DNA of 60,599 nucleotides from the IMG/VR virus record IMGVR_UViG_3300035138_000104, positions 1-60,599 of that record, one strand, 5' to 3'. Positions 8,753 through 55,015 of this stretch are shown here, piece by piece. Made by a program: the position numbers and the translations under genes. Numbering within the stretch: position 1 is the first letter of the stretch; the number at the start of each line of letters is the position of its first letter. This stretch comes from a virus. A model generated the notes under the pieces. It was not told the DNA's origin. It did no database searches and saw only the letters and a program-made list of their open reading frames with translations.

Positions 8753-8780
8753 ATTATAGCACGCTTTTTTAATTTGTCAA
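8753..8780 (-). promoter_or_regulatory. Sigma70-type promoter with extended -10
   Basis: TTGACA (8780-8775), 16 nt, TGcTATAAT (8761-8753). A second TTGACA at 8803-8798 has no matching -10. Confidence 0.65.
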
Positions 8781-8970: not shown

Positions 8971-9001
8971 AAAAAAAGCGTCCTTGAATTAACAAAGACG
9001 C
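8971..9001 (-). terminator. Rho-independent terminator closing the late/lysis operon
   Basis: Minus strand GCGUCuUUG-UUAAUU-CAAgGACGC followed by U7 (8977-8971). Confidence 0.65.
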
Positions 9002-9068
9002 CCGGAGAAATAAAAAATGAAAAACATGAATGCCAATAACTTGACATTTAAGTGACTATCTCATTTTT

Positions 9069-10596: not shown

Positions 10597-10729
10597 CTTC
10601 TATCTCCTTATGTAAATATATTTTATCATATTTATCACAATTACTGCAAGATTCTATAAGATATTTTTTTTCATCTATTAACTCAATTTCAGTATTAATA
10701 TCACCTATCTTACAGTCAGGGCATTTCAT
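10568..10729 (-). CDS. Small zinc-ribbon protein (53 aa)
   Basis: ATG at 10729 follows UGGAGGAUAAA. Contains CPDC...CSNC. Confidence 0.55.
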   Translation of the reverse strand: MKCPDCKIGDINTEIELIDEKKYLIESCSNCDKYDKIYLHKEIEDEIIETKID

Positions 10730-10730
10730 T

Positions 10731-11345: not shown

Positions 11346-11354
11346 AAAATCTCC

Positions 11355-12923
11355 TTAAAGTTCATCATCTATAGTCCATTGAAATTCAATTTTTGCTTGA
11401 GTACTTCCTCCCCCATTTGTACCTGAAACAGAAAAAGAAATGTCTGATTTTCTTTCAAATGTTGGGGTCTGGTTATCTCCTGCTGACGTTGCAATTTTAT
11501 CCTTATTTGGAACATTATCATAAGTAGTTATGGTATAATTATTAGTTCTACTAACAATTGGTAAAAATACTATTCCTTTGACTGTACGTGCTGCATTATT
11601 AAGACCATCAAGAAATAAAATATATTCTCCATCATTTGTTATTGTTCCTGGTGCAACATCAAAATTATAAGATTTTTGATAGAATCTTTTACATAGCATA
11701 ATTTCTGTTGTAAAATATCTCTGTGCATATGCTATCGCCTTATTGCCTTGAGTTAATCTTACTTTACTAATATACAATTCATCGTTAACTGAAGCGTCTG
11801 TATCATCTATCCAAAAAAATAAAGCAATATTTGTAGTAGAAGGCGTATCGAGGCTAATACCTTCTATTGTATATTCTGTCCAATTTGTTGTTAATGCTAT
11901 ATTTTCAGGTGTATTTTCATATGTCCAATTTGAAACTAATGTTGGATCTGCGCCTTCTGAACCCCATATGCTCACTACATCTGAAGTTACATTATCTAAT
12001 GCCCCATCCCAAGCTAAGACTCCAACTCTTATATTTTCTATTTCTACCCCTGATCCTGTTTTTGCCTCAAAAGCAACTGAACACGTTGAACCAATTATGT
12101 CTATTGCCTCTCTATTTTCAACTATTTGTAATATTCCAAATTTTTTATTTGCCGTAGCAACCACATGCTTCATGCTAAAAGTAGCTCCGGCCGGTGCATC
12201 TGCGCTTCTCGAAACATCGACAATATCATTTCCATCACTTAATAATATCCATCGGTCAAGAAGATATGTATCGTCATTGTTTGCCGGATCTGTTGTAGAA
12301 TCAAATGCTGATCCTCTTTGGATAATCATACCATCAGGATTGATTATATAATTTTTAAAATTCTCAATCTTAAAAGAAGAATAAGAAATTTTCTTTTTAT
12401 TATACGAATCTTCAGAATCTTCTATTAATAAAACATCATCATCCACTAAAACACTTTTAGAACTCATTGTGTTAATTTCATTTGTAACAGATTTATTCAA
12501 AGCCCCATCTTTCCCAACTAATAATTTCCAATCACTAGGACTTGATGAAGGCGTATTGCCTTGATTAGGAGATCCCCCTGTGCCTGTTAATGAAATATAA
12601 ACATCTTCATTAGAATCTCTTACAATTGAACCAATATAATATTCTTCAGTCGAAAGATATTCAGCAATACCATTCTGAAAAATATAACTTAATTGACTTG
12701 TAATCAAAAAATATAATGCGTTAATATCCTGTATTCTTGGTGGTTCATTGGCCGATGCTGTAATAGCATATAGCCCCTGTAAATACTGAGCCAAGCTTTG
12801 AATATTGTCTAAATCTTTAGTTGTAGTTGGCGCTCCAGCTGCTTCAGAACCTATTCTCCCAAATTCGCTAGTACCACCTGTCGAACCGAAAATTTTTTGT
12901 AAAACTCTAGATAATAGTGCCAT
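11355..12923 (-). CDS. Tail fibre / receptor-binding protein
   Basis: 522 aa. It is the last large structural gene after the baseplate genes and has a Gly/Ser/Thr/Asn-rich composition. Confidence 0.55.
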   Translation of the reverse strand: MALLSRVLQKIFGSTGGTSEFGRIGSEAAGAPTTTKDLDNIQSLAQYLQGLYAITASANEPPRIQDINALYFLITSQLSYIFQNGIAEYLSTEEYYIGSIVRDSNEDVYISLTGTGGSPNQGNTPSSSPSDWKLLVGKDGALNKSVTNEINTMSSKSVLVDDDVLLIEDSEDSYNKKKISYSSFKIENFKNYIINPDGMIIQRGSAFDSTTDPANNDDTYLLDRWILLSDGNDIVDVSRSADAPAGATFSMKHVVATANKKFGILQIVENREAIDIIGSTCSVAFEAKTGSGVEIENIRVGVLAWDGALDNVTSDVVSIWGSEGADPTLVSNWTYENTPENIALTTNWTEYTIEGISLDTPSTTNIALFFWIDDTDASVNDELYISKVRLTQGNKAIAYAQRYFTTEIMLCKRFYQKSYNFDVAPGTITNDGEYILFLDGLNNAARTVKGIVFLPIVSRTNNYTITTYDNVPNKDKIATSAGDNQTPTFERKSDISFSVSGTNGGGSTQAKIEFQWTIDDEL

Positions 12924-26928: not shown

Positions 26929-26957
26929 TTGACATTGCAACTTCGTAATATTATAAT
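26929..26957 (+). promoter_or_regulatory. Perfect-consensus sigma70 promoter of the plus-strand operon
   Basis: TTGACA (26929-26934), exactly 17 nt, TATAAT (26952-26957). GAAGGAAG SD, then ATG at 26990. Confidence 0.8.
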
Positions 26958-27657: not shown

Positions 27658-27957
27658 ATGAAAGCAATCAAAATTGATAAATACCAAAAAGTAGGTGACT
27701 TGGAATATTCAATAAAACTCAATGTAAAGTTAACATTTTGGCTAGCCGTGAAATTACGTATCGCCGGTATTTATAATCTTTTAGACGCAGAAGAACATAA
27801 ACCAATCCATAAACAAACAAATATATATCATAATGCCAATAGAATTGATACTTCTAATTTAAAATCTGGACAAGCAATTAGTAATGATTCAGAATTAAAA
27901 TTGGCTAAAAAATTAGAAAAAGACTTATTAAATAAAAGAGGAAGAAGATTCAAATAA
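27658..27957 (+). CDS. Hypothetical protein (99 aa)
   Basis: AAGGAG lies 8 nt upstream. Its 3' end overlaps the 3' end of the convergent gene 27950..28639 by 8 bp. Confidence 0.6.
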   Translation: MKAIKIDKYQKVGDLEYSIKLNVKLTFWLAVKLRIAGIYNLLDAEEHKPIHKQTNIYHNANRIDTSNLKSGQAISNDSELKLAKKLEKDLLNKRGRRFK

Positions 27958-28639
27958 ATCTAACTTTCAAAGGTTTTTCAAATCCATAGACTGGCCTTCT
28001 GGAAAACATATAATTCCCTGAATAATCTGTAATCACATAAGAAAGATTCTTATAGCAAAAAATAGACTTATATTCTATATCAAAATCATTAAACTTATGA
28101 ACTAATTCATCTAATACGAATATGCAATTACTCTCAGTCATTGCGATTAAAGTATATCCTTTAGATTTAGCCATGGTTTTTAATGCCAAAGCAGAACAAC
28201 CAAAATTACTATTTTTCTTGGCTATCATGTTCATGAAAGGTGGAATTGTAGGGTTATATTCACAAATAAGCACTCTGGGGCGTGATTTTAAGTCCTTTAG
28301 TATAAAATAATCATTTCCGTCTATATCAATGCTTAGAAGGTCAATTTTAGTGTATCTGTTGATAATATCCGCATTCTTGACCCATTCATTGACAGCAATA
28401 CAATCATACCATCTAATATTACGTTCCAATTCATCAAACTTTTTTTTATTGCCTTCTATTAGAATGGCTTTCCATCCATTACGATATAAATTACAAACAT
28501 TAGAATAATGAACGCCATCCCATGAACCGAGATCAATACATACATTATGCCTTATTTTTATAATTTGAAATATCTTGGCGATTATGCCATCTTCCCCGAA
28601 TTGAGAATAAACATTAAATCCAAAATCTGATAATTTCAT
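27950..28639 (-). CDS. SAM-dependent methyltransferase (FkbM-like)
   Basis: 229 aa. YSQFGEDGII...CIDLGSWDG N-terminal pattern, then ...LSIDIDGNDYFIL. Confidence 0.55.
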   Translation of the reverse strand: MKLSDFGFNVYSQFGEDGIIAKIFQIIKIRHNVCIDLGSWDGVHYSNVCNLYRNGWKAILIEGNKKKFDELERNIRWYDCIAVNEWVKNADIINRYTKIDLLSIDIDGNDYFILKDLKSRPRVLICEYNPTIPPFMNMIAKKNSNFGCSALALKTMAKSKGYTLIAMTESNCIFVLDELVHKFNDFDIEYKSIFCYKNLSYVITDYSGNYMFSRRPVYGFEKPLKVRFI

Positions 28640-28643
28640 TTAT

Positions 28644-30311
28644 TTATCCCTCATAATCTAATAATTTTAATTCATTTTTTAATAATTTTTTATTACAGTT
28701 AAAATAATTTTCTACATCTTTAATATCGATATCCAATTCTTCAGAACATTCTTTTATATCTTTTACCCATTTATTTAATCGTGCCATTTCGATGTTAAAC
28801 TTTTTCATAAACTCTTGATTTATCTTACAATGAATATTTCCATTTTTATAAGCTCGGACTCGCATGAATTCTTTATCAAGCAACTTGTCATAATAAAAAA
28901 TATTTTCTTCACCTGGTTGCCATTCAAAATTAAAACTGCTCTCAATATTTTCAAACCCTAAATTATTAGCAACTGTTGAAATATCATTTATGAAAGTATG
29001 TACATCCTTATAAAGTCCGTTTGAATAATCATAGCTTCTATACCCAGATTCATCAAAACAAGAATATCTTCTAAATACTAATCTATAATCTAATTTAAAA
29101 TGAGTTTGTTTAAATTTCTGAAATCTCCATCCATCTTCAACTAACTTCTTATTAGATTTATAAAGTCTAATATTTTCTTTATCTGCCATTTCAAAATATA
29201 CATCCTTAAGCTGTTCATCTATATATATATTTGCATTCTTTAAAACCCATATAATTAAAGCGTAAGCATTTTGTCTTGTAAAATCAATATTAGTTTGACT
29301 ATGTAATTTATCTAAAATAATTTTTCGACTTTTTGATGTTAATTTTTCAGTAATTTTATTTAAATTATCAAATAATTCTTTCCAATATAGATTTTTTAAT
29401 CCTTTTATTTTTTCTTTCAATCCTGATTTTAGGTTGCCTAAATTAACTCCCATTTCTTTAAATAGTTCAGCACCTATATTTTCAAGTTGTTTATAAGTAT
29501 TCAATAATTTTTCTAAATCTTTTTGATACAATTCTTCTAATGCTTCAATTATATTGCCTTGAATTAATTGTTTAATATTTTCTTTTTTCTCTTGTTCAGT
29601 TTTATAATTCCAATCCTTTTTTTTATCAGCATTTATCTTAAAATTTTCTTCAAACCAGATGTCAAATGGATCAGTTTTTTCTTTTTTGAAATCTATTTTT
29701 ACTATATCTATTTTAGCCCTTGATTCTCGATATTCAGAATTTAAAAAATCATCTGAATAAATAATTTGATATTTATTATCTTTAATTTTCCCGACATCGT
29801 CTACATATTTATTTAGTCTCTTATTTAATATATTTAATATTTCTTGATCCTCTTTCCAACGTTCAGGAATTATCAAATATATTACTTTACAATTAGCTTC
29901 TTTAAGAATTTTTAAAGTCCATTCTTTAAACTCTTTATAAGGCGGATTACAAAAAATAACATCAACTTTTTTATCAATTAATGTTTGCTTTAAAAAATCC
30001 GTTCCTATTATAATTATATCACTTGGCATACTATCGATTAATATTTTTGATTTTTCAATAGCAAATTTATCTATATGAGTTTTCGATGTGTATTCATCTT
30101 TTGGTTTTGGAAATAAATCTTCAAAAAGTTGAAAAACATTTCCATTTCCTGCTCCGATATCTAGCATAGAAAAATTTTCAACCATCCCTGTATAATCTTT
30201 TTTATCTTTAATATAATCATAAAAAATTGTTTCAATCATTCTTTTCGTTGTTGGATACCACTCAAAATCTTCATTATTTTCTTTTAATTTAAATAATAAA
30301 TCCTGCGTCAT
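28644..30311 (-). CDS. Amino (N6-A/N4-C) DNA methyltransferase with a long uncharacterised C-terminal region
   Basis: 555 aa. Motif I MLDIGAGNGNV and motif IV FCNPPY lie in the first ~150 aa. No motif is recognised in the remaining ~380 aa. Confidence 0.7.
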   Translation of the reverse strand: MTQDLLFKLKENNEDFEWYPTTKRMIETIFYDYIKDKKDYTGMVENFSMLDIGAGNGNVFQLFEDLFPKPKDEYTSKTHIDKFAIEKSKILIDSMPSDIIIIGTDFLKQTLIDKKVDVIFCNPPYKEFKEWTLKILKEANCKVIYLIIPERWKEDQEILNILNKRLNKYVDDVGKIKDNKYQIIYSDDFLNSEYRESRAKIDIVKIDFKKEKTDPFDIWFEENFKINADKKKDWNYKTEQEKKENIKQLIQGNIIEALEELYQKDLEKLLNTYKQLENIGAELFKEMGVNLGNLKSGLKEKIKGLKNLYWKELFDNLNKITEKLTSKSRKIILDKLHSQTNIDFTRQNAYALIIWVLKNANIYIDEQLKDVYFEMADKENIRLYKSNKKLVEDGWRFQKFKQTHFKLDYRLVFRRYSCFDESGYRSYDYSNGLYKDVHTFINDISTVANNLGFENIESSFNFEWQPGEENIFYYDKLLDKEFMRVRAYKNGNIHCKINQEFMKKFNIEMARLNKWVKDIKECSEELDIDIKDVENYFNCNKKLLKNELKLLDYEG

Positions 30312-31111
30312 TTATTTAACTCCATTTGATGCTTAAGATTTGATATATTTGTGCCTTCAGTTGAAATATAAGTATCAACTGCATGTTTTAAATTATGCTG
30401 CTTTTCTCTAAGATTTCTAAAATCCTGAGAAAGTATTTCATGTTCTTTTTCTAAACGCAAATAATCATCTATCAATTTATTGAGTAACTCAAAACCATGG
30501 TAAAATGGGATTGTCTTAATTTGCCAATTCTCCCAAATCCAATCTATCTTATAAGTAAGTTGATGTGTTTCACTTAAAACATTACAGAATTTATCCTTAT
30601 ATTTATCAAACTTTTTATCAATATGATGGAATTGAACCTGGATATTATCAATTACTAACTGTAAGTTATTTTTAATTATATCGTCTAAAATATAATATTC
30701 AGCCCCTTCCACATTAAGTTTAAGCAGATCTATTTTTGTAATCTCATTTTCTTTAAAAAATTCACTTAATTTTTTCATTTCCACATAGAAAGCACTCTCT
30801 AAGTCTACTCGAAAGATTGATGAAGAATCATCTTTTAATTGTATAGGTGTCAACTCTTCTTTATTATGTAATCCAAAATTATATAAATGGATTTTATTAT
30901 TCTCTGCAAACTTATCACATAATAAGTTAAAAAAATCTGGAATAGGCTCAAAAGCATAAATATTACATTTATATTTACTATATATTTTTTCAATAAATTC
31001 ACCTTTATACGCCCCTACATCAAAAACAATGGAATCTTCATTCAATGGATAATCAAGTCTTAATGTGTTATTTCCATCAAAAATATCATTCCATATATAA
31101 AATTTGCCCAT
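30308..31111 (-). CDS. FkbM-family methyltransferase
   Basis: 267 aa. FDVGAYKGEF and LNVEGAEYYIL patterns. Confidence 0.6.
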   Translation of the reverse strand: MGKFYIWNDIFDGNNTLRLDYPLNEDSIVFDVGAYKGEFIEKIYSKYKCNIYAFEPIPDFFNLLCDKFAENNKIHLYNFGLHNKEELTPIQLKDDSSSIFRVDLESAFYVEMKKLSEFFKENEITKIDLLKLNVEGAEYYILDDIIKNNLQLVIDNIQVQFHHIDKKFDKYKDKFCNVLSETHQLTYKIDWIWENWQIKTIPFYHGFELLNKLIDDYLRLEKEHEILSQDFRNLREKQHNLKHAVDTYISTEGTNISNLKHQMELNK

Positions 31112-31827
31112 TAATATTCACCCCACTTATCATTAAATATAAGTTTCCCTTTCCTGATAAACTCTTGCTCTTGATCCCATAAAAACTTATTTTGTGTATG
31201 ATATTCCCTATTTATTGGACAATGCCACAAATGAATATGATTTATTGAGCGATCAAATATAATTTTATTTCCATATTTTTCCAATCTCAAATTTATACTT
31301 TTATCTTCCGCAGCATACCCCAAATAATATTCGCTCCATCCTTTTATATCAATAACAGACTGAGTATGGAATAAGCCTATTCCATGAGCTTCACCTGTTG
31401 GATGCTGTTTAAACTTATCAGCAATGATTAACAAATCATCATAATTACCTGAATAATATTCCATAGGCATTGCTATATTGCGAGGAATCACCCGAACCGG
31501 TTTATTCTGTATATGTGAAATAATTCGTTTAATATAATCCTTTGGATAAACAAGGTCTATATCTGAAAAACAAAAATAATCATAATCCTTTAAATAATAT
31601 TTCACCATATAATTCATTAAAAGTGATTTATTAAAGTATTTATTATAAGGTTTATGAATATAAACAATTTTATCATGATCAATAATATCAATATCTTCTT
31701 TAGATGCATTTAAGATAAATATCTTATCAGCTTGTAATAAAATAGAATTTAATGAGCAATTGAAGCGTCTCATTGCATTAGGAAGGGAATCTATTTTAAA
31801 GTTTATAACATAAAGTATTGGTATCAT
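31111..31827 (-). CDS. GT-A fold glycosyltransferase (GT2 / beta-4-GalT-like)
   Basis: 238 aa. FSDIDLVYP (DxD) and GWSEYYLGYAAEDKSINLRL (a WGxEDxD-like region). Confidence 0.55.
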   Translation of the reverse strand: MIPILYVINFKIDSLPNAMRRFNCSLNSILLQADKIFILNASKEDIDIIDHDKIVYIHKPYNKYFNKSLLMNYMVKYYLKDYDYFCFSDIDLVYPKDYIKRIISHIQNKPVRVIPRNIAMPMEYYSGNYDDLLIIADKFKQHPTGEAHGIGLFHTQSVIDIKGWSEYYLGYAAEDKSINLRLEKYGNKIIFDRSINHIHLWHCPINREYHTQNKFLWDQEQEFIRKGKLIFNDKWGEY

Positions 31828-32741
31828 TTTTTATATTTTTTATACTCTTTCATCTGTTCTTTGGTAAGCCCCTTATTCCAAGCAGTTAATCCTCTATAAT
31901 TTCCTCTACCTCTTTTCCATCCCATTTTTATATAATAATCTAATTCTTCTATTTTAATTATCATGTCAATATTATCTTTATAAATCCATCTTCTATTTTT
32001 ATTTTTAATTTTTAATCTAGCTATTGTTTTTTCTGAATGATGTTTACCATACATATGATTATTTTTTCCACTATTGGACAAACTATTTTTAAAATTAGCC
32101 AATAAAGAATGACCTCGTCGCCAACCTTGATCAATATATTCTTTTAATTCATTTTTTTTTATATATTTTTCCTTATCGTTTTTATTAATACATATTAATT
32201 TTTTCTTAGCATTGCTTATATTCTTTCTATGTTCTTTTGAAAATTTTTTTCCTTTAAAATAACCTATATGCCCCATCAAAGCTTTACTTATCTTTTTTCT
32301 TGATTCTGAATATTTTCTCATATGATTGTTGTCGCCTCTGATTTTATCGCCTTTCCCATAATTAGGATTATTTTTACCTTTATTACTTAATTTTCCTTCT
32401 TTAAATAATTTCTTTAGTGATTCACTATTTTTTTTATTATGTTCTTTAGTTTTTGGGATTCCTTTTAATAAATCACCTATACCTTCACCGCCTTTGGTTA
32501 TATTATAGCCATTAGGGGAAATACTATTATAATATTTAATCCAGCCTTTCTCTCTTTCATCTAATATAGTTTTATTTAATATATTATTTTCTAATATATC
32601 TTTTTTAAAATTTTCCTTTCCATATTTTTTAATGGCTAATTTAATTAATTTCCCAGAACCATAATAATTATTATTATTTTTAGAATCTTGCCCTATATAT
32701 ATTTTCCCATTTATTAAATTAGTTGTTTTATAAATTATCAT
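31824..32741 (-). CDS. GIY-YIG homing endonuclease with NUMOD3-like repeats
   Basis: 305 aa. IIYKTTNLINGKIYIGQ...YYGSG at the N terminus, then repeated GKNNPNYGK and GKNNHMYGKHHSEKT motifs. Confidence 0.8.
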   Translation of the reverse strand: MIIYKTTNLINGKIYIGQDSKNNNNYYGSGKLIKLAIKKYGKENFKKDILENNILNKTILDEREKGWIKYYNSISPNGYNITKGGEGIGDLLKGIPKTKEHNKKNSESLKKLFKEGKLSNKGKNNPNYGKGDKIRGDNNHMRKYSESRKKISKALMGHIGYFKGKKFSKEHRKNISNAKKKLICINKNDKEKYIKKNELKEYIDQGWRRGHSLLANFKNSLSNSGKNNHMYGKHHSEKTIARLKIKNKNRRWIYKDNIDMIIKIEELDYYIKMGWKRGRGNYRGLTAWNKGLTKEQMKEYKKYKK

Positions 32742-33286
32742 TATTTTGCGACCAATAAATCAGATTTAAATAATAATTCATCTTTTCTGTAAGAATCTTC
32801 ATATATGAATTCAAAATATGGATCAATTTTCATCAATTTTGATTTGATATCAGATAAATCAAAATCACAATTTTCAGATTTTTTCCAACATCTTAGATCA
32901 TCTATTATTATTATATCACCTTTTTCATAAAATTTGGAAATAATCTCTAATTCATCCATTAAAGGATTAGGTTTTTCTCCATAAACAGTTGTGCCTCCAC
33001 TATCATGTGCATCTAAAAAATATGTTATTTTAAAAGAAGAATAAATCCTATATTTTGAAATTATATTTCCTAATAATTTAGTAGAATCTCCAAGAAGAAT
33101 ATCAACTTTAATATTATGATGAAATCTTTTTTTACAAGTTATATATAATTGAGTTGATAATTCTATAGAATGTATTCTATTAAATTTAGAATCCAAAGCT
33201 GCTTGAATTCCGTCTCCAATTAAACTCCCAGTCTCCACAAACACATCATTTTTATACTTACTTAATATTTCACTATTTATTGGCAT
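32741..33286 (-). CDS. Hypothetical protein (possible methyltransferase-like fold)
   Basis: 181 aa. VETGSLIGDG Gly-rich loop and IIIIDD. The resemblance is weak. Confidence 0.35.
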   Translation of the reverse strand: MPINSEILSKYKNDVFVETGSLIGDGIQAALDSKFNRIHSIELSTQLYITCKKRFHHNIKVDILLGDSTKLLGNIISKYRIYSSFKITYFLDAHDSGGTTVYGEKPNPLMDELEIISKFYEKGDIIIIDDLRCWKKSENCDFDLSDIKSKLMKIDPYFEFIYEDSYRKDELLFKSDLLVAK

Positions 33287-33920
33287 TATTTTTCTCCTTT
33301 CTTAAAATAAATGATACTCTCGTACCTCTTATATAATAAGCCTCATATAAAGCCTTGTTTTCTTCTATTATCTGATAAATAGCTTTTTGAACACCATCCA
33401 TCAATGTATCATGCCATATAATGACTTTTGGGTTAGATTTTAAGGCGTTTATAGAATCCACATAACAAAACTCATAATTATGCCTACCGTCAATATACCA
33501 GGCATCAATTGGGTAATATGGTGAAAAATCAAAATCTTTTGAGTTTCCAAATAATTGAGTATAAGTAAATTCGCATCGTTCACCTACTTTTCCTTCTGGT
33601 TTTTCACTATTCCAATTTAAATAGACATCTTTAGTTTCATCATATCTGACCGGTAAATCAAGTGAATATACTTGTTTACCTTGCATAGCATTACAAATAA
33701 TTCTAGTCCCCTCTCCTAAGTGAGTTCCTATCTCACAAAATGACTGAGGATTTACTTCCCTAATTATTCCATGTAAAGCCAAATAATCCTCTTTAAAGCC
33801 TTCACATCCCATGAAATCCCTATATATTAAAGCATCATGCATATATTTATCAAAATAGCTTAATGATAATAATTCAAAATATTTTGGGTTTATATTAATA
33901 TATTTTTGTCTATTATCCAT
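33273..33920 (-). CDS. Class I SAM-dependent O-methyltransferase-like protein
   Basis: 215 aa. FCEIGTHLGEGT (motif I) and DGRHNYEFCYVD...IIWHD. Confidence 0.5.
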   Translation of the reverse strand: MDNRQKYININPKYFELLSLSYFDKYMHDALIYRDFMGCEGFKEDYLALHGIIREVNPQSFCEIGTHLGEGTRIICNAMQGKQVYSLDLPVRYDETKDVYLNWNSEKPEGKVGERCEFTYTQLFGNSKDFDFSPYYPIDAWYIDGRHNYEFCYVDSINALKSNPKVIIWHDTLMDGVQKAIYQIIEENKALYEAYYIRGTRVSFILRKEKNNANK

Positions 33921-34294
33921 TATTTTTCTTTTATTTCATAGCCAATAATATTTTCTGCTATATTTTCAGATATTTTAATTAATACATTAGCCGGTAATTT
34001 ATCTTTTAAATATCCAATAATTTCTTTTTCTAATTCAAAATTTATATCTTCTAGTATTAAAAAAATAGTAGATGTATCCCTATTGACAACAATAGTTATT
34101 GAATCAAACCAATATTGAACCAATACAAAATATGCTATATTATATATAGTGCAGAATTTTGAATTAAATTTTTCATTAAAATTATTAGATAAAATTTCAT
34201 CTTTACAAAAAGTATAAACCTCAATGTTATTTATTTTTATATCAAAATATTTAAAAAATAATTTTTTAATGATTTTTTTTAAAAATTTTACCAT
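33920..34294 (-). CDS. Hypothetical protein (124 aa)
   Basis: ORF in the island gene train with no recognised motif. Confidence 0.6.
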   Translation of the reverse strand: MVKFLKKIIKKLFFKYFDIKINNIEVYTFCKDEILSNNFNEKFNSKFCTIYNIAYFVLVQYWFDSITIVVNRDTSTIFLILEDINFELEKEIIGYLKDKLPANVLIKISENIAENIIGYEIKEK

Positions 34295-34686
34295 TTTTTC
34301 TCCTCTAAAATTTTTGTCGTTGATATATCAGGTGTTCTAGGTAAAATAACAATATCTGGATAATCAAAAGGCTTCATGTTATTTTGCCCAACTGATTTTA
34401 TCCATAAATCCACCATTTGAAGATAAGGTGTCATGTCTAAAGTATCAACTACAATTACTTTATCAGCATATGGCATTACATTATCAATTCTTACAAATAA
34501 AGGATCAATAGGCCTATCCTGCCCTTTTTGAACTTTTACAATATAATCTGTTACAACTGCCACGATTAGATAATCACAATGTTTTCTGCATCGTTTTAAA
34601 AATATTCTATGCCCTTTATGGAATAAATCAAATGTGCCGGTTGTTAATGCTAGTTTCATATCACCCCCATTGTTCAGCCATTGCAT
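34288..34686 (-). CDS. Cytidylyltransferase-family protein (TagD-like)
   Basis: 132 aa. TTGTFDLFHKGH carries the HxGH nucleotidyltransferase signature and is closest to the TagD GTFDLLHxGH form. Confidence 0.7.
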   Translation of the reverse strand: MQWLNNGGDMKLALTTGTFDLFHKGHRIFLKRCRKHCDYLIVAVVTDYIVKVQKGQDRPIDPLFVRIDNVMPYADKVIVVDTLDMTPYLQMVDLWIKSVGQNNMKPFDYPDIVILPRTPDISTTKILEEKKW

Positions 34687-35233
34687 CAGCTATACCCTGA
34701 AATGTTCGGCTTCTATCTTTTGAATTTCTAGGCATTTTGTACCATCCTGAAGTATATCTAAACCCATTTTCTGTTATAATATAAGTTAATTCAACTTCTT
34801 TTGTTTTTTGGAGCAAAGGTAAATTTTTTAACCATAAACAAGTTTTTTTTGAATAATCATGCCCAAAATAATATGGTTGTATAATCTGATTATAATTTGG
34901 TAAATTTGCCATTTTAGATGGTATTGGATTTTCTATGCATATTTTTTCTATATTAGCATTATATAATTTCATAAAAAATGTTTTCGATATTTTAATATTT
35001 TCATTTTGATTTTCTATTTTGTTTAATCTTGATCTATTTCTACATAAATAAGTACATGGAGGATGGGCAACCATTAAATCCCAATCATTATCTAATATTT
35101 CTAAAACATCACTTTTAATATGTTGCCCCGGTATTTCAGTATCTAATAAATCACATGACCAGGCATCATGTCCACGTTTCCTAAAAGCCTCCCTTATAAT
35201 ACCAGAAAACTCACATGCTATTAAAACTTTCAT
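34661..35233 (-). CDS. Short C5-cytosine DNA methyltransferase-like protein
   Basis: 190 aa. IACEFSGIIREAF (FxG loop), HPPCTYL (ProCys motif), CIENPIPS (ENV-like). Confidence 0.5.
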   Translation of the reverse strand: MKVLIACEFSGIIREAFRKRGHDAWSCDLLDTEIPGQHIKSDVLEILDNDWDLMVAHPPCTYLCRNRSRLNKIENQNENIKISKTFFMKLYNANIEKICIENPIPSKMANLPNYNQIIQPYYFGHDYSKKTCLWLKNLPLLQKTKEVELTYIITENGFRYTSGWYKMPRNSKDRSRTFQGIADAMAEQWG

Positions 35234-35838
35234 TTATTTTCCTTTTTCTCAATTCTCCAATCATGCCCATATCTAAACTCACAAAATCGATCTGGTTTGT
35301 GCGGACACGGTAAAGATAAATTGCCTATTTTAGATTTATCCAAAGGGAATAAATATTCAACTGGAAAATGCTTCCCTTTATTTTCATCTTTGCCCTGAAT
35401 ATATTGTTTACGGTATAAACAAGCTGTATTATATTGCCATCTATCCTCTTGCCAGATTTCTTTAAATGGCATGATTTGAACATCCCATGCAAAGATATCC
35501 ACATGAAGTTCATTTATTCTGCTATAATCTAATCGTAAAAAATTAGGATAGAACCAACTTACTAGATGGAATCCCATCAAACGAAATTCATCGCTTAAGC
35601 ATAATAGTTTATCTAAATCCTGCCTTAGTATACCAATATCGCAATCATCGTCATAGGGTATTATTTGCCCCTGTCTTATACTTCCAAGCAATGTGCCATA
35701 ATCAATCCAATATAATATATTATGCTTTCTAAATACGATATCTATAGCAGATAATAGTTTCATAAGATTGTTTTTGCAGCATTCATTTAATGGGAATCCT
35801 TTTTGTATATCGCACTTTTTAGTATCTTTATTACACAT
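35230..35838 (-). CDS. LicD-family phosphotransferase
   Basis: 202 aa. WIDYGTLLGSIRQGQIIPYDDDCDIGI matches the LicD/fukutin-type signature. Confidence 0.7.
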   Translation of the reverse strand: MCNKDTKKCDIQKGFPLNECCKNNLMKLLSAIDIVFRKHNILYWIDYGTLLGSIRQGQIIPYDDDCDIGILRQDLDKLLCLSDEFRLMGFHLVSWFYPNFLRLDYSRINELHVDIFAWDVQIMPFKEIWQEDRWQYNTACLYRKQYIQGKDENKGKHFPVEYLFPLDKSKIGNLSLPCPHKPDRFCEFRYGHDWRIEKKENK

Positions 35839-35848
35839 TTTAAATTGC

Positions 35849-36130
35849 TTATAACCTTATATTTTCTTTTAAGTTATTCAAATTATTAATACAAGACTCT
35901 AACGATCCGTTAAAATTCTTTAATTTGTCACCTAAAACAGTTCCACATCCTTCTGATAATTTGGAGTCTAATTTTTCAGTTGGATATTCTTCAATAATAT
36001 CAGCACATCGTTTTCTTAAAGAATTAATAGCATGATCCAATTTTTCTAAATGCTCACCAATTAAACGCACCTCACGCCCTATTTCATATTCTATTCGTTC
36101 TTTCTCATCAGTTTTTTCTAACTCATACAT
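35849..36130 (-). CDS. Hypothetical helical protein (93 aa)
   Basis: ORF in the island gene train. Confidence 0.6.
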   Translation of the reverse strand: MYELEKTDEKERIEYEIGREVRLIGEHLEKLDHAINSLRKRCADIIEEYPTEKLDSKLSEGCGTVLGDKLKNFNGSLESCINNLNNLKENIRL

Positions 36131-36175
36131 ATTTAATCTCCTAAAAAAAATATATTTTTAACCATTAACAATGGT

Positions 36176-36991
36176 TTATCCCTCAATAAACTCAACTTTA
36201 CTCTCAATATGGCAAGAGTTGCCGTTAAATATTTCAAGTTTACTATAATCAATAACATAGCCATCTAAATATTTATAATTCAAAAACTCCGCAGGTATTC
36301 TTCCGTGCCTATTCTTATTATCCATTTGCACCCGATTTATAGGCAAATTTACAATCTTAGGTTCATCAAAGCCCATCATTAAATATCTAGCATAAGGCAT
36401 TATACGAGCAAAAAAGCCCTCAAGTGTATTGGGGGATCTAAACTCAAACTTCTTAATATAAGGCAGAATAAAGTCCGTCTCATATAAATTAAAATCCAAA
36501 CTGAATGGATAAGTCCAGTCCCCTTCTTCTCCCTCGGTCCAATTCCACAAATTATAATCCGCACCCTTGATTAAAAGCGGCCGGGATATAAATCTATTCT
36601 GTGTATAACAATAAGAAATATTCTTACCGAGCCTTAATGACAAAGTAATTATCTCAGGGCGTTGCTTAAAGAAATCAACCTCTTTACATTGCAAATCAAA
36701 ATCACGAATAAAAACATCATCATCAGTCCCAAATATAACAAGTTCTTTACTTGTATCTATGCAATTAATAACATTCTGTCTAAATGTCACTTGTTTGACA
36801 AACTCAATATTACCCTTACATTCATTTTTAAGCTTATTATATCCAGCTTCAAAACTATCATTAGAATAAGTATAAATAACCTTAATCTCCTGGTTATCAA
36901 AATCATTCCAATGCATTTTCATGGATCTTAATAACAATTCTAATTGACAAGGTCTATTAAAACTAAAAATTATTATATTTGCTTTATTCAT
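36176..36991 (-). CDS. Putative GT-A glycosyltransferase
   Basis: 271 aa. N-terminal IIIFSFNRPCQLELLLRSM and FGTDDDVF. Confidence 0.45.
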   Translation of the reverse strand: MNKANIIIFSFNRPCQLELLLRSMKMHWNDFDNQEIKVIYTYSNDSFEAGYNKLKNECKGNIEFVKQVTFRQNVINCIDTSKELVIFGTDDDVFIRDFDLQCKEVDFFKQRPEIITLSLRLGKNISYCYTQNRFISRPLLIKGADYNLWNWTEGEEGDWTYPFSLDFNLYETDFILPYIKKFEFRSPNTLEGFFARIMPYARYLMMGFDEPKIVNLPINRVQMDNKNRHGRIPAEFLNYKYLDGYVIDYSKLEIFNGNSCHIESKVEFIEG

Positions 36992-37054
36992 TATACAACT
37001 CCAAAAAAATTTAATTTAATAAAATATAATTTAATATAAAGTAAGCCGACAAAA

Positions 37055-37690
37055 TTATATTTTTCTATCTTCTAAGACTATAGAATAATCAAGGCTCTTT
37101 TGCATTATATAAGAAAAGCCTGTCCTCTGTGTTATTTGACGAGGATTCATGCAAAAACTCTTTTTATATTGTTCCTGGATTAAAAAGCTCAATAATACAT
37201 CGTATTGAGTATTAACCTCCTTAAACTGCAATATCTGATTATAGATGCTAGAATTAACGCAATAAGCATGTGTAGTATAACATCTATAAACACGCATTAT
37301 ATCTTTATTATAAATATCGTAATGATGCCCTGAATTAACATTCAAGTTGCCACCAAAATAAAATAAATGCCAATCTCCATTTAATATGAAATCTTTTACC
37401 ATTCCCAATTTTTCTAAAAAAGTATCTTTTATATTTATATCATCTTCAAATATACATACTCTATCAATGCCGTTCTCTTTGCATTGTTCAATAATAGCCA
37501 AATGTGACAATTTACATCCAGCCTCACGATCTTGTAATGTTTGACCGTTATTTACTTTAATGCCTTCAAATATAATATAATCGGATATCCCAATTTTAGC
37601 AAGTTGTTTTTTTGCATGTTCAAGGCGTTCAGCATGTTCAGGGAGATTGATCAAATATACAACTGGAAATAATTGATTAAAATTGAACAT
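37055..37690 (-). CDS. Glycosyltransferase family 25-like
   Basis: ATG at 37690 follows GGAG. VYLINLPEHAERLEHAKKQL, CKLSHLAI, IFEDD. Confidence 0.6.
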   Translation of the reverse strand: MFNFNQLFPVVYLINLPEHAERLEHAKKQLAKIGISDYIIFEGIKVNNGQTLQDREAGCKLSHLAIIEQCKENGIDRVCIFEDDINIKDTFLEKLGMVKDFILNGDWHLFYFGGNLNVNSGHHYDIYNKDIMRVYRCYTTHAYCVNSSIYNQILQFKEVNTQYDVLLSFLIQEQYKKSFCMNPRQITQRTGFSYIMQKSLDYSIVLEDRKI

Positions 37691-37833
37691 TCTTTTTTCT
37701 CCGTATTGATTTAAACTTAATATATTTAAGCCGTCCACAATTTTTACATATCTTAGATTCTTCTATACCTATAATATCTTTCGAAAAATATTTGATTTCG
37801 TTAATTTTTTTACTCCAAACATGTAAACACATA

Positions 37834-38532
37834 TTACCTCTGAGTTTCATTCAACCTATACGCCGAATTATTCTTGCCTATATGCTGAAAATAATTATCG
37901 GTAAAATAAGCAATCTTAAGTCCTTTTCCTGCAACCTGGCAGGCATAATTGAACTCAAAACCGAATATATCTTCTCTAAAGCGCAAATTATTTTCTTTTA
38001 GCTTTTTGACATTGATTAAGCTAGGATTCAAAGTGAACCCTGGAAATGCTGGTCTGCCTAGACTATCAACTGATTTGACATTATAGTCATATTTTATATA
38101 TTTTTTATTGCCTAATTTTAAAGTCTTTTGCCCTATTGCTGTTATATCAGCTTTACGGTGGTATTGGACCTGGACAACATTATCATGCTTATTAAATATC
38201 TGAAACGCAGTTTTAATGAAATTATCAGACTTAACGCACTCCCAATCGTCCTCACATAAGAACAAATAATCATTAGATACTAGATTAAATAAAACATTCA
38301 TAGATTTTGGATGCGACTTATATTCTGTTTTATTCACAAATATTAATGGCTTGCCTAATTTTTTTAATAGTCCCATCATTAAAATAATATCTGGTAATTC
38401 TGAATTATCGTCTATCAATATTATTTCTGATACCAGATCCCATTCCTTAAAGTTCTTCAATAATGAATTGAATGTTTTTAAAAATAAGTTATATCGTTTG
38501 CATGTAATAAAGCCTAATGAAATTTTTAACAT
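37834..38532 (-). CDS. Glycosyltransferase family 2-like
   Basis: 232 aa. ILIDDNS (DxD-type) and LCEDDW. Confidence 0.6.
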   Translation of the reverse strand: MLKISLGFITCKRYNLFLKTFNSLLKNFKEWDLVSEIILIDDNSELPDIILMMGLLKKLGKPLIFVNKTEYKSHPKSMNVLFNLVSNDYLFLCEDDWECVKSDNFIKTAFQIFNKHDNVVQVQYHRKADITAIGQKTLKLGNKKYIKYDYNVKSVDSLGRPAFPGFTLNPSLINVKKLKENNLRFREDIFGFEFNYACQVAGKGLKIAYFTDNYFQHIGKNNSAYRLNETQR

Positions 38533-38858
38533 TATTTTTTATCCTTATTGTCTAATATCTCAATAAGTTCCTCTTGTAATTCTATTATTTCTTTACATTT
38601 AGCCAGCATTTCTTCATCGTCCCTAGTTGTAAAAAATGAACTATCCCTTAAAACATTTCTTATTTCTTCTTCCCTTGATAACTTTATATGATTCCATCTT
38701 TTCCAATCATTTAAAATTAATTTTTTTATCCTACCCCATTTATCTTGTTTTTTGTTATTACTATATAATATATTTCTTATCCTATATGCTACATCAGGAG
38801 TGAATAATAGTAATTTATGTGAAAATTCTTCACTTATTTGTTCTTTGTCTTCTTTCAT
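38532..38858 (-). CDS. Hypothetical protein (108 aa)
   Basis: ORF in the gene train. Its stop overlaps the next start. Confidence 0.6.
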   Translation of the reverse strand: MKEDKEQISEEFSHKLLLFTPDVAYRIRNILYSNNKKQDKWGRIKKLILNDWKRWNHIKLSREEEIRNVLRDSSFFTTRDDEEMLAKCKEIIELQEELIEILDNKDKK

Positions 38859-38872
38859 CCTTTTTCCCCTTT

Positions 38873-39085
38873 TTATTCATCCGTGATCTCGCTAATATCA
38901 TTTTCTTCATCTAATAATAATTCAGCTTCTAAATTTTTATAATAATTAGAATCATATATTTTTTTTGACTTTTCTTTAAATTTTTTTTCAGCTTTTTTAA
39001 TTGCTTCTACATCATTTTTAGCAATGACATAACATCTTACAAAAGACGCCCCCATCCATCCATTTGTCACACAATATACTCTCAT
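38873..39085 (-). CDS. Hypothetical protein (70 aa)
   Basis: ORF in the gene train with GGAG upstream. Confidence 0.6.
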   Translation of the reverse strand: MRVYCVTNGWMGASFVRCYVIAKNDVEAIKKAEKKFKEKSKKIYDSNYYKNLEAELLLDEENDISEITDE

Positions 39086-39105
39086 TTTTTATCTCCTGCT
39101 ATTAT

Positions 39106-39411
39106 TCATAATTTTATTTTTAAAGATGCTGGTACTCCATAAATTTTATCTTCATATAAGTTAAAACAACGTTTATCTAAAATTAAAATTTTATTTTCAA
39201 AAGGATGTTTTTTATAGACATATTTACAGGTTTCAAAAGCATATATTTCTTCATCTTTAATCTTTCGCAAATATTTATCTAATAATTTTCTTTTTAATTC
39301 ATCTTGTTTTCTTAAACTCTTATAAAGTTTAATAGAATCAATCCACGATTGATAATCAAAATAGGTTAAAGTTGTAGCTTCGTTTATTTGATTGCTATTT
39401 ATATTATTCAT
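39106..39411 (-). CDS. Hypothetical protein, paralog of 52915..53268
   Basis: 101 aa. ETCKYVYKKHPFENKILILDK matches ETCKYVYTLHPFEKDKLIILDK in the other copy. Confidence 0.65.
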   Translation of the reverse strand: MNNINSNQINEATTLTYFDYQSWIDSIKLYKSLRKQDELKRKLLDKYLRKIKDEEIYAFETCKYVYKKHPFENKILILDKRCFNLYEDKIYGVPASLKIKL

Positions 39412-39560
39412 AACCCACCTGAGATCATATCATGACAACCATCGCATATTATTATTTTATCACCTGTTGATGGTAAATAATTATTTTTGGTTAATCGATC
39501 TTTTTTGAATATAACTTCACACATTTGGCATTGATATTCATTGTCTTTAGCATTATTCAT
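39408..39560 (-). CDS. Small zinc-ribbon protein (50 aa)
   Basis: ATG at 39560. CQMC...CDGC. It has ATGA-type overlaps with both neighbours and is below the track cutoff. Confidence 0.5.
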   Translation of the reverse strand: MNNAKDNEYQCQMCEVIFKKDRLTKNNYLPSTGDKIIICDGCHDMISGGL

Positions 39561-39765
39561 TATTAATGCCCTCAATTCTTTTTCTTAAAGCAGCAATATC
39601 TTTATATATCTCTGCCAAGTGAAAAGATGATATCCTTCTATATTCTTTCAATATCTCTTCAAAGGGCGGATTAAATAACATAATAGATTTAAGCTGTCTG
39701 TTTTTTTCTTTCGCATCTTCCCAATTTTTATTAAGCTCGTCAAATATTTGTTTTTGTGATTTCAT
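39553..39765 (-). CDS. Hypothetical protein (70 aa)
   Basis: ORF in the gene train. Confidence 0.6.
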   Translation of the reverse strand: MKSQKQIFDELNKNWEDAKEKNRQLKSIMLFNPPFEEILKEYRRISSFHLAEIYKDIAALRKRIEGINNE

Positions 39766-39944
39766 TTTTTTAATTCCTTTAAAAGTTCTTTTGTTATTTT
39801 ATTTCTTTCTTGCAAAACTTCTTTTAATATTTTCATTGACACTTGTATATATATGCTTCCATCATAATCATTACAAACATATATATCTATATTATCACCA
39901 TTAAGTTCAATAAAGTCTTTTTGTGCAGTGTACCATTTGCTCAT
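39762..39944 (-). CDS. Hypothetical protein (60 aa), first gene after leader element copy 3
   Basis: AAGGAGAAAUAAG precedes the ATG at 39944. Confidence 0.6.
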   Translation of the reverse strand: MSKWYTAQKDFIELNGDNIDIYVCNDYDGSIYIQVSMKILKEVLQERNKITKELLKELKK

Positions 39945-40043: not shown

Positions 40044-40071
40044 ATTATACTGCAATATTTTTATTTGTCAA
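40044..40071 (-). promoter_or_regulatory. Sigma70-type promoter
   Basis: TTGACA (40071-40066), 16 nt, TATAAT (40049-40044). The predicted start is about 40039-40036, at the first nucleotides of element copy 3. Confidence 0.7.
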
Positions 40072-54070: not shown

Positions 54071-55015
54071 TTATTCTTCATATGCCCAAACATCATTATA
54101 CCACATATTATTTTGACTTACACTTCCAGCTATTATCAATAATTTTCCATCAAAAACCACAGCTGATAATGACGCTCTTTTGCCCCAAGGAATATCCCCT
54201 AATTGACTCCAACTTGAACCATTCCAAACATATACATCGTTGCCTACATTATCTTCAGAACAATCTGGTTCATGCCATTCCATAGTATTCTGAATAACTC
54301 CGCCTATAAGATACATATTATCATTATATACGACAAGCCCACTTCTAGCCCTTTCATAGATAGAATTTGAACTTGCTTGAATCCAATTATATCCGCCATC
54401 TGTACTATAATAAGCATCATCTCTAAGATAATAAGTACCGACTCCATAATTACCACCAATAACCCATATTTTCCCGTCTTGGTCTTTTGCAGAAATATGA
54501 TTACATCTTCCACCCCAGCTTGCATGTTCTACTAATCGAGTAAGGACTGTCCCGTTAAATGACCATACGTCATCAGCATCCCAATACTGAGTTTTTTCTG
54601 CGTTGCAACAATACCCACCAATAATGAGGATTTGACTCTCAGATATTTTCACGATTGTATGTCCAGCCCTACGGCCAAGGGAAGAAGAACCAGAAAAACA
54701 ATCCCAATAATAGCCATCTATACTATACCATATATCTGAAGCAAGAGTCCCCGATTCAGTACATCCTCCAAAAAGCCAGTATTTCCCTTGAAAATATACT
54801 ACTGCATGAGAACGCCTATAACACCAAGGATTATTCCCACCTGTATCCACTTTTTTTTGTATCCATATTCCACCATCATTGCTTTCCCAGACATAATTAT
54901 GAAAATCATTATTATGTCCTCCAATTTTCACTAATTTTGTGCCATTGTTGACAACAATATTAGATGTCTCGTCTGCAGGGAAATTAGCATTCCCTGTTAA
55001 TTTTGTCCAACTCAT
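54071..55015 (-). CDS. Kelch-repeat beta-propeller protein
   Basis: 314 aa. Repeated units contain GG(x)n...W..Y/W signatures (KIGGHNN...VWESNDGGIW, LFGGC...IWYSIDGYYW, IIGGY...VWSFNG, VIGGNYG...AYYSTDGGYNW, LIGGV...VYVWNGSSW, IIAGS...VWAYEE). Confidence 0.65.
   Translation of the reverse strand: MSWTKLTGNANFPADETSNIVVNNGTKLVKIGGHNNDFHNYVWESNDGGIWIQKKVDTGGNNPWCYRRSHAVVYFQGKYWLFGGCTESGTLASDIWYSIDGYYWDCFSGSSSLGRRAGHTIVKISESQILIIGGYCCNAEKTQYWDADDVWSFNGTVLTRLVEHASWGGRCNHISAKDQDGKIWVIGGNYGVGTYYLRDDAYYSTDGGYNWIQASSNSIYERARSGLVVYNDNMYLIGGVIQNTMEWHEPDCSEDNVGNDVYVWNGSSWSQLGDIPWGKRASLSAVVFDGKLLIIAGSVSQNNMWYNDVWAYEE

Follow-up and report, generated by a model that had tools for sequence, protein, structure and literature searches.

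The minus strand of the uncultured virus genome IMGVR_UViG_3300035138_000104 (IMG/VR) carries an open reading frame (ORF) for a 132-amino-acid (aa) cytidylyltransferase-like protein (34288-34686) and, close by, one for a 202-aa LicD-like protein (35230-35838), and the locus raises the question of what these two enzymes make together and what they decorate. The stretch analysed, called the window hereafter, is 60,599 bp long and represents the whole virus genome (CheckV completeness 100%; direct terminal repeat of 127 bp). The initial annotation, made from the letters of the window, had proposed a minimal activate-and-transfer pair encoded by a phage, and this proposal is supported by family signatures, predicted folds, genomic linkage and gene fusions. 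The pair is probably a two-enzyme module that makes a cytidine diphosphate (CDP)-alcohol and transfers its alcohol-phosphate to a glycan, and the transferase is predicted to be of the type of FKRP, the human muscular-dystrophy enzyme, and not a generic LicD.

Signatures and folds of the two enzymes

The two ORFs had been picked out by the peptides GTFDLFHKGH and WIDYGTLLGS...IPYDDDCDIGI, respectively, and both were recovered with the same ends on the minus strand. The 132-aa protein matches PF01467 (CTP_transf_like; E 5.6e-11, 43.2 bits, cut-off 21). A profile (A2) made from an alignment of 22 of its relatives was searched against the PDB and matched, over the full length including RTxGISTT, human phosphoethanolamine cytidylyltransferase (ECT, 1e-21), TagD of B. 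subtilis (3e-17) and TarD of S. aureus (1e-15), and CCT was matched too; the ECT score sums two domains, and TagD is the best single match over the full length, in sequence as well as in fold. The alignment of A2 with the HldC-like structure 5x9q is confined to profile positions 3-93, the N-terminal two-thirds. Cytidylyltransferases of the GCT/CCT/ECT family (PF01467, COG0615) are defined by HxGH and RTxGISTT, the latter described as “unique to the cytidylyltransferase family” (PMC8262930), and both motifs are present: F-H23-K-G-H26, in which H23 and H26 are invariant in the 22 relatives, and R117-T-P-D-I-S-T-T (family consensus RTPGISTT; T118 and S122 invariant), which aligns with RTEGISTT of TagD and TarD. 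In TagD, Lys44 and Lys46 contact the phosphates of CDP-glycerol (PMC8262930), and the invariant K54 of the phage family aligns with K44. The AlphaFold model of the protein (pLDDT 92.2) shows the Rossmann-like fold of cytidylyltransferases and has TagD as its top fold match (1coz, TM 0.76/0.79, 35% identity), followed by HldC, CCT, TarD and ECT. An identity as nicotinamide mononucleotide (NMN) or pantetheine adenylyltransferase, which the initial annotation had named as the case against its reading, was rejected because both cytidylyltransferase signatures are present and TagD gives the best superposition. By its motifs and model the protein is predicted to be a phospho-alcohol cytidylyltransferase using cytidine triphosphate (CTP), probably a CTP:glycerol-3-phosphate cytidylyltransferase.

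The 202-aa protein matches PF04991 (LicD; E 5.2e-16, 59.9 bits, cut-off 22.6) with an alignment that covers just profile positions 2-49 of 227. Its own profile (A1, an alignment of 13 relatives) matches one PDB family alone, human FKRP (6kaj residues 248-435, E 3.4e-24), over almost the whole query. The AlphaFold model (pLDDT 90.5) was compared using Foldseek with the same outcome: FKRP structures come first (query-normalised TM 0.72-0.78, E ~1e-13), and the next matches, LnuA and ANT(2''), are far weaker. A direct tblastn search with the protein against GenBank phages returned just 3 weak partial matches.

The published structure of FKRP showed a zinc finger of the C4 type (Cys289, Cys296, Cys317 and Cys318), four essential aspartates (Asp360, Asp362, Asp364 and Asp416), an arginine (Arg295) that binds the acceptor phosphate, and a loop, Leu433-Gln437 (LDHRQ), that contacts ribitol (PMC6965139). 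The zinc-ligand cysteines align with C2, C9, C20 and C21, which are invariant in the phage family (A1) and keep the C-x6-C spacing, and the phage loop opens with CNK[DE]T, nearly identical to FKRP. The four essential aspartates correspond to D63, D65, D67 and D114, invariant in A1. The position of Arg295 is usually Lys or Arg in the phage family (K8 in the window). Nucleotidyltransferases of the LicD type are further recognised by an hG[GS] motif and three carboxylates, DxD and a later hDh (PMC6965139); the motif is present as G48-T-L-L-G52-S and, like D65, D67 and D114, is invariant or nearly so. The stem domain of FKRP (FKRP_N, PF22921) is missing, the phage protein starting directly at the zinc-finger loop. 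The initial annotation was thus right about the LicD family, but its general LicD/fukutin-type label is better replaced by FKRP-type with a predicted zinc-finger (Cys4) loop; the loss of the catalytic acidic motif that it had considered as a possible objection is not seen, the full acidic set being present in a model of high confidence that can be superposed on FKRP.

Linkage of the two genes and breadth of the Cys4 subfamily

In a set of 23 viral loci from IMG/VR anchored on LicD-like genes, an A2-type cytidylyltransferase was found in 15, compared to none of the 80 control loci (665 kb) anchored on the family of the 190-aa gene that lies between the two enzymes in the window (Fisher p 1.2e-12). 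The cytidylyltransferase gene lies next to LicD or one small gene away in L001, L002, L003, L006, L019, L021, L022 and L023, it lies at 1.7-3.3 kb in L004 and L015, and in L010, L011, L012, L018 and L020 one ORF of ~334 aa encodes both as a fusion. Both Pfam domains were confirmed in the fused L010, and likewise in LicD + PF01467 fusions of the wider protein collection (P0222, P0303). Conversely, among 80 loci anchored on the cytidylyltransferase, a LicD-like gene abuts 5 of the 6 members of the close subfamily (>100 bits) and 2 of the 74 distant phage ones (p 5e-6); one close-subfamily member (213.6 bits) with an abutting LicD-like gene is on a 527-kb contig (L185). More distant cytidylyltransferases were also seen on two ~436-kb contigs (L195, L203), which, like L185, are as large as jumbo phages or giant viruses. 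In the unrelated phages L003 and L022 the pair adjoins portal genes, and it occurs in giant-virus-like contigs as well. Class-I methyltransferases stand between the two genes in L002 and L003, and LicD is elsewhere fused to NTP_transferase and to class-I methyltransferases (P0276, P0255, P0285, P0319). Since adjacency is conserved and the genes are fused, the two enzymes appear to work together; the same kind of reasoning, from bacterial ISPD-LicD fusions, was used by Gerin et al. to predict the function of FKRP.

Some neighbours of the pair in these loci deserve mention. In L002, a 44.8-kb viral contig, the LicD / methyltransferase / cytidylyltransferase trio adjoins a 2007-aa ORF (3113-9136, plus strand) that fuses multisubunit-type RNA polymerase Rpb2 (beta) and Rpb1 (beta-prime). 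In L003 the gene for a 952-aa protein with an intein splicing domain and an HNH endonuclease (847-3705, plus strand) lies upstream of that for a second PF01467 protein (244 aa) and of the cytidylyltransferase / methyltransferase / LicD / portal run. In L022 a mannose-6-phosphate-isomerase-type cupin and a phosphoribosyltransferase (135 aa each; 10696-11513, plus strand) lie between the pair and the portal gene and may be extra precursor-supply enzymes.

The zinc-finger loop has been called exclusive to FKRP orthologues (PMC6965139). When 1.84 billion representatives were searched with a profile, 35,020 matches to the LicD superfamily were obtained, and in the 150 best cluster representatives, in which the cysteines were scored, the Cys4 motif was present in 106. 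The supposedly exclusive loop therefore occurs in phage, giant-virus-like and soil-bacterial proteins that make up at least about 100 clusters at 50% identity. Besides the window phage, the fetched loci with the motif come from seven further viral contigs and from about eight metagenome-assembled genomes (MAGs) that belong to Actinomycetota or Gemmatimonadota or are unclassified, and the nearest ESM-Atlas clusters are mostly viral (Uroviricota and Nucleocytoviricota). Ordinary bacterial and archaeal LicDs match the A1 profile from position ~25 onward only. One protein, P0218, is a eukaryotic FKRP orthologue with FKRP_N followed by a LicD domain with the Cys4 loop, and it is the sole carrier of FKRP_N. 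No fusion to PF01467 was found among the 150 closest Cys4-type representatives, the LicD-cytidylyltransferase fusions being in non-Cys4 relatives. Other fusions of the Cys4 domain were noted: to PqqD (P0054), to a weakly matching MobA-like nucleotidyltransferase (P0098, Terriglobales MAG, HEY7855435.1), and to an O-methyltransferase of the TylF/Methyltransf_24 type (P0056), the family of the island gene 33273..33920. Many Cys4 proteins are 200 aa long, stem-less and soluble, and could be easy models, by bacterial expression, for the catalytic core of the human disease enzyme.

A phylogenetic tree was built from 94 catalytic domains after removal of the loop columns. In the careful analysis the 22 ordinary LicDs formed a clade (UFBoot 97 / SH-aLRT 88) to which neither FKRP nor any of the 49 Cys4 rows belonged; a constraint that put FKRP among the ordinary LicDs cost 12.4 log-likelihood units, and this placement was not rejected by the approximately unbiased test (p-AU 0.24). 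A quick tree with FKRP inside the Cys4 clade was discarded, because a constrained alternative was better by 28.8 log-likelihood units. The grounds for the proposed kinship with FKRP are the loop that both have, the profile match over the full length and the similar fold; the phylogeny is compatible with it without being decisive.

In humans FKRP acts with ISPD and fukutin in the CDP-ribitol-dependent transfer of ribitol-phosphate to the glycan of alpha-dystroglycan (PMC6965139, PMC4873967). The phage enzyme shares with it the catalytic fold (TM 0.78), the C-x6-C...CC loop, the four aspartates, hG[GS] and the basic residue before the second cysteine (Arg295/Lys8), and the logic is the same, a CDP-alcohol synthase feeding a transferase. 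It differs from FKRP in that the stem is absent, the loop is 10 residues shorter and DENKG stands in place of LDHRQ; furthermore, its partner synthase is a TagD-like PF01467 protein and not of the IspD family, it is predicted to be cytoplasmic and soluble whereas FKRP is located in the Golgi, and the phylogeny favours kinship but at the p-AU just given.

Donor, acceptor and competing explanations

The pair may be viewed as a portable two-step module that phages carry within glycan-building islands. In the first step, judging from family membership, the 132-aa enzyme would join CTP and a host-made phospho-alcohol into a CDP-alcohol, most likely sn-glycerol-3-phosphate into CDP-glycerol. In the second, by homology to FKRP and LicD, the 202-aa enzyme would use an Asp63/65/67/114 metal centre and the Cys4 zinc-finger loop and move the alcohol-phosphate to a glycan hydroxyl, so that cytidine monophosphate is released and a phosphodiester formed. 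The glycan itself would be built by soluble neighbours (GT2, GT25 and GT-A-like glycosyltransferases) and methylated by others (FkbM, Methyltransf_24).

There are several observations that speak against parts of this interpretation. The 132-aa protein fails every NCBIfam equivalog cut-off, its scores against the models of rfaE domain II, TagD and CoaD all lying well under the respective cut-offs: TIGR01518 gives 44.1 bits (cut-off 165.4), although over the full length (14-129 to 2-124 of 125), and the highest single score is that of rfaE domain II (TIGR02199, 54.6 bits, cut-off 181.5), which covers just residues 10-68. In PHROGs the family carries the label of a heptose enzyme. The position of TagD Lys46 is Gln56 and variable across the family (an invariant Arg58 follows). 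Most distant phage cytidylyltransferases have no LicD partner, and the related enzyme of the cultured cyanophage S-T4 has no LicD nearby; the idea that cyanophage cytidylyltransferases are general partners or fusions of LicD was rejected for S-T4 for this reason. In the transferase, the donor-alcohol loop LDHRQ of FKRP is replaced by D151-E-N-K154-G155, in which D151, K154 and G155 are nearly invariant, and because of this replacement the ribitol specificity of FKRP should not be transferred to the phage enzyme. Finally, the evidence consists of computation on an uncultured phage, and acceptors on the virion and in the host envelope would fit it alike.

As for the acceptor, the setting of the pair is informative. 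It lies in a co-directional gene run of ~12 kb (27950-39944), referred to here as the glycan island, which contains GT2, GT25 and GT-A-like glycosyltransferases and FkbM and Methyltransf_24 methyltransferases and is flanked by a MuF-like head gene on one side and by the scaffold and capsid genes on the other. All 21 island proteins lack a membrane-like segment (maximum 19-residue hydropathy 1.37, compared to at least 2.0 in the real membrane proteins of the phage), and no flippase, polymerase or priming transferase was found in the island, so the chemistry is expected to be cytoplasmic. The phage is a myovirus, as the PHROG matches in the window include tail sheath, baseplate wedge, tape measure, tail fibre, major head protein, portal and both terminase subunits. 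It is apparently lytic, since family searches of the whole genome detected neither a tyrosine integrase nor a serine recombinase or resolvase. With all of the island cytoplasmic and no lysogeny genes, the acceptor would have to be accessible from the cytoplasm while the phage grows lytically. We favour, tentatively and at somewhat less than even probability, a glycan on the phage's own virion proteins, because lysogeny genes are missing, the island sits in the head module, and the pair lies beside portal genes in L003 and L022.

The same chemistry might instead be directed at the host envelope, a possibility that we regard as rather unlikely and yet as the nearest competitor. The enzymes would then decorate a lipid-linked precursor (core of the lipopolysaccharide (LPS) or lipooligosaccharide (LOS), O-antigen, capsule or a teichoic-acid intermediate) at the inner membrane face and change the surface during infection, e.g., to block superinfection or the adsorption of progeny to debris. 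GT25 is a glycosyltransferase family of the LPS/LOS type, bacterial LicD enzymes act on envelope glycans, and peripheral cytoplasmic enzymes could reach intermediates linked to undecaprenyl diphosphate without a membrane segment of their own. Moreover, some gut Flandersviridae phages have an adjacent ispD + licD pair for which modification of teichoic acids was suggested (Benler et al. 2021, PMC8008677). That pair resembles the one described here, as a nucleotidyltransferase and a LicD protein encoded together in a phage and present only in some members of the lineage, like a mobile insertion; it differs in its IspD-type synthase, which implies CDP-ribitol or a similar donor, and in its insertion in the replication module, whereas the window has a TagD-like synthase, a Cys4 FKRP-type LicD, and an island of ~12 kb with glycosyltransferases and methyltransferases in the head module. 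The absence of integrase and resolvase genes argues against lysogenic conversion, and the soluble island proteins, without flippase, polymerase or priming transferase, argue against an envelope pathway. The same is true of the investment of ~12 kb within the head module of a lytic-type 60-kb phage, and of the recurrence of the pair by portal genes in unrelated phages and in giant-virus-like contigs, the hosts of which have different envelopes. If the target were nonetheless the host envelope, the finding would be a modest extension of the Flandersviridae observation.

For the donor, family searches of the genome found no IspD/TarI, TarJ-type reductase (zinc-ADH), choline kinase or TagF, and the substrate would consequently have to be a common host metabolite. 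We put the chance that the donor is CDP-glycerol at about even. Both FKTN and FKRP accept CDP-glycerol, and in L. lactis the TagD1 enzyme and YcbG, a fukutin-like protein with a LicD domain, have been proposed to add glycerol phosphate inside the cell (PMC9574508). This rhamnan decoration is similar to the phage system in combining a TagD-type enzyme with a LicD-domain protein devoid of a signal peptide; it is a proposal, not a demonstrated activity. With bacterial TagD/TarD (PMC8262930) the window enzyme shares the length of ~130 aa, HxGH and RTxGISTT, the fold and the equivalent of K44, and it differs in being 35% identical in the structural alignment, far under TIGR01518, without Lys46 and with a degenerate RYVDEVI dimer motif.

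An alternative donor would be CDP-choline or CDP-ethanolamine, with phosphocholine or phosphoethanolamine being added and a methyltransferase perhaps converting the latter to the former. The top PDB score of the A2 profile does belong to ECT, CCT was matched as well, and the sole NCBIfam match of the transferase is the cholinephosphotransferase Mf1, which transfers both groups; also, class-I methyltransferases stand between the two genes in L002 and L003 and are fused to LicD in the four proteins named above. We consider this donor improbable, however, since the ECT score is a two-domain sum and TagD remains the best full-length match in sequence and fold, the Mf1 match is far under its cut-off (59.5 vs 225 bits), the genome encodes no choline kinase and offers no obvious source of either substrate, and the methyltransferases of the window are of the FkbM and TylF sugar-O-methyltransferase types.

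Less probable still is that the 132-aa enzyme is a heptose-1-phosphate nucleotidyltransferase of the HldC/RfaE-domain-II type supplying a nucleoside-diphosphate-heptose, its adjacency to LicD being incidental. The top NCBIfam and PHROG scores point to such enzymes, HldC ranks second among the fold matches, DNA heptosylation has been shown to depend on a phage “CTP transf.” enzyme, and the S-T4 homologue adjoins a phosphoheptose isomerase. The rfaE and HldC matches, however, are confined to the shared N-terminal half, whereas the C-terminal RTPDISTT fits the cytidylyltransferase-specific motif; the fusions with LicD and the subfamily-specific adjacency argue for a CDP donor, and no heptose isomerase, kinase or phosphatase was found among the window ORFs scanned. 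Hypermodification of DNA, in which the C5-methyltransferase-like 190-aa gene would start a path from 5-methylcytosine via 5-hydroxymethylcytosine to a glycan and the pair would add a phospho-alcohol to the DNA-linked sugar, is hardly credible: phage clusters with LPS- or teichoic-acid-like glycosyltransferases do glycosylate 5-hydroxymethylcytosine, some of them among structural genes, and here such a gene lies inside an island of cytoplasmic enzymes, but genome family searches found no TET/JBP dioxygenase and no thymidylate-synthase-like hydroxymethylase, the gene is missing in L001, the remaining island of which keeps 96-100% identity, and none of the 80 best loci with its relatives has a linked LicD or cytidylyltransferase.

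Taken in its most specific form, the preferred interpretation is that a lytic phage caps a cytoplasmic, methylated virion glycan with phosphodiester-linked glycerol-phosphate by means of an FKRP-type enzyme, and that the zinc-finger domain of animal FKRP falls within an old, mainly viral and soil-bacterial clade; that all of this holds at once is doubtful. If it did, the enzyme acting on dystroglycan would have a common ancestry with enzymes that viruses carry to decorate glycans. If the acceptor is indeed a virion protein, phage particles would carry a phosphodiester, teichoic-acid-like decoration, which matters for adsorption, immune recognition and particle stability. Capsid glycosylation is known from chloroviruses and mycobacteriophages. 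Phage DNA glycan clusters are another case of virus-encoded glycosylation of virus components (bioRxiv 10.1101/2023.12.21.572611). Such systems resemble the island in their self-contained set of soluble glycosyltransferases, methyltransferases and a nucleotidyltransferase acting in the cytoplasm, and they differ from it in that the sources consulted report no LicD/FKRP-type decoration with a phosphodiester-linked alcohol.

Small PF01467 genes have been reported as “tagD/GCT” auxiliary metabolic genes of marine phages (CRP-6, S-SZBM1, Arctic viral operational taxonomic units), and their function was called unclear by the authors (PMC6918029, PMC9146016, PMC11515562). The hosts of these phages lack teichoic acids. 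In contrast to the window subfamily, which is specifically tied to LicD, no LicD partner was reported for them. The linkage suggests a concrete role for at least one subfamily of these genes, that of a dedicated donor-supplier for a LicD/FKRP-type phosphotransferase. A literature search, which was not exhaustive, found no published phage PF01467-LicD pair or fusion and no FKRP-type zinc-finger loop outside animals; what appears to be new is that the LicD partner of a phage is FKRP-type, with the Cys4 loop and the four aspartates of the human enzyme.

Gene content of the island and its surroundings

The main genes of the island are listed in Table 1. The island looks like one transcription unit, with a perfect promoter-like site at its head and no terminator-like site on the minus strand between this site and 27950. 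The genes around the pair overlap by 4 nt (35230-35233), 26 nt (34661-34686) and 7 nt (34288-34294). The 271-aa protein has a possible DxD motif, TDDDVF, seen by eye only. Among the small genes heading the island there is one for a 55-aa protein with two CxxC pairs (39408-39575, minus strand; zinc-ribbon-like).

Table 1. Features of the glycan island of the window, in the direction of transcription.
Feature	Position	Strand	Evidence
Perfect sigma-70-type promoter-like site, head of island	40044..40071	-	TTGACA-16-TATAAT, 12/12 matches
GT2-family glycosyltransferase, 232 aa	37834..38532	-	PF00535, E 2e-7, 31.5 bits; no membrane segment
GT25-family (LPS/LOS-type) glycosyltransferase, 227 aa	37055..37738	-	PF01755, E 5e-15; 98% identity in L001
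271-aa protein, family not assigned	36176..36991	-	no Pfam, NCBIfam, PHROG or PDB sequence match; 99% identity in L001
93-aa acidic protein, directly upstream of transferase	35849..36130	-	no family match; 100% identity in L001
Predicted FKRP-type LicD-family phospho-alcohol transferase, 202 aa, N-terminal Cys4 zinc-finger loop	35230..35838	-	PF04991, FKRP profile and fold match
190-aa “DNA methyltransferase”-like gene, passenger	34661..35233	-	phrog_757, E 1.2e-50
GCT/CCT/ECT-family cytidylyltransferase, 132 aa, probably CTP:glycerol-3-phosphate	34288..34686	-	PF01467, TagD fold match
124-aa protein	33920..34294	-	no family or PDB match; 99% identity in L001
Methyltransf_24 (TylF/CmcI-like) S-adenosylmethionine-dependent methyltransferase, 215 aa	33273..33920	-	PF13578, E 9.4e-6, 26.9 bits (cut-off 26.3)
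181-aa protein	32741..33286	-	no Pfam, NCBIfam, PHROG or PDB match; just 56% identity in L001
NUMOD3-motif homing-endonuclease-like gene, 305 aa	31824..32741	-	PF07460, E 3.2e-13
GT-A-like glycosyltransferase, 238 aa	31111..31827	-	sub-threshold PF13733 and PF00535; 96% identity in L001
FkbM-family methyltransferase, 267 aa	30308..31111	-	PF05050, E 7e-17
555-aa methyltransferase (MTS) + DUF4942 protein	28644..30311	-	PF05175, PF13708; no homologue in L001
FkbM-like methyltransferase, 229 aa, last island gene	27950..28639	-	PF05050, E 1.4e-6; 98% identity in L001

The gene between the two enzymes had been described in the initial annotation as a short C5-methyltransferase-like gene, unexpected in a sugar pathway. 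The gene is indeed there, and its sole match is to phrog_757, “DNA methyltransferase”; no Pfam, NCBIfam or PDB sequence match was obtained, so that no curated C5-methyltransferase model or structure was matched, and the PPC and ENP motifs were recognised by eye only. In L001, a 64-kb relative of the window phage, LicD is 97% identical and the cytidylyltransferase follows after 2 nt, with no gene between. Members of the 190-aa family abound in viral contigs (at least 600 matches), and no LicD or cytidylyltransferase gene was found in the 80 best loci of these. Because the gene is missing from L001 and its relatives elsewhere are not linked to the pair, it is an unrelated, dispensable passenger insertion outside the pathway. 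The genes flanking the cytidylyltransferase are 97-99% identical in the two phages, compared to just 55% for the cytidylyltransferase itself, and the 190-aa gene occurs in the window only. This pattern is that of a cassette replacement that preserved function, since an allele of 55% identity was swapped in while the flanks stayed 97-99% identical.

Two further island genes seem to be insertions. The NUMOD3 homing-endonuclease-like gene is mobile, because its homologue in the sister phage L001 (4811-5830, 60% identity) sits at another position; the gene for the 555-aa MTS + DUF4942 protein is probably another insertion and possibly encodes a DNA methyltransferase.

The window has a GC content of ~29%, six tRNA genes, and nearly all of its genes on the minus strand. 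Its closest cultured relative is the Bdellovibrio phage phi1422, the portal proteins being just 38% identical. What looks like the sole plus-strand gene cassette of the genome (26929-27957) has the glycan island on one side and the scaffold gene on the other; it begins with a perfect sigma-70 promoter-like site (12/12; 26929-26957), followed by four small ORFs (56, 84, 57 and 99 aa). A Kelch-repeat beta-propeller protein of 314 aa is encoded on the minus strand in the early region (54071-55015).

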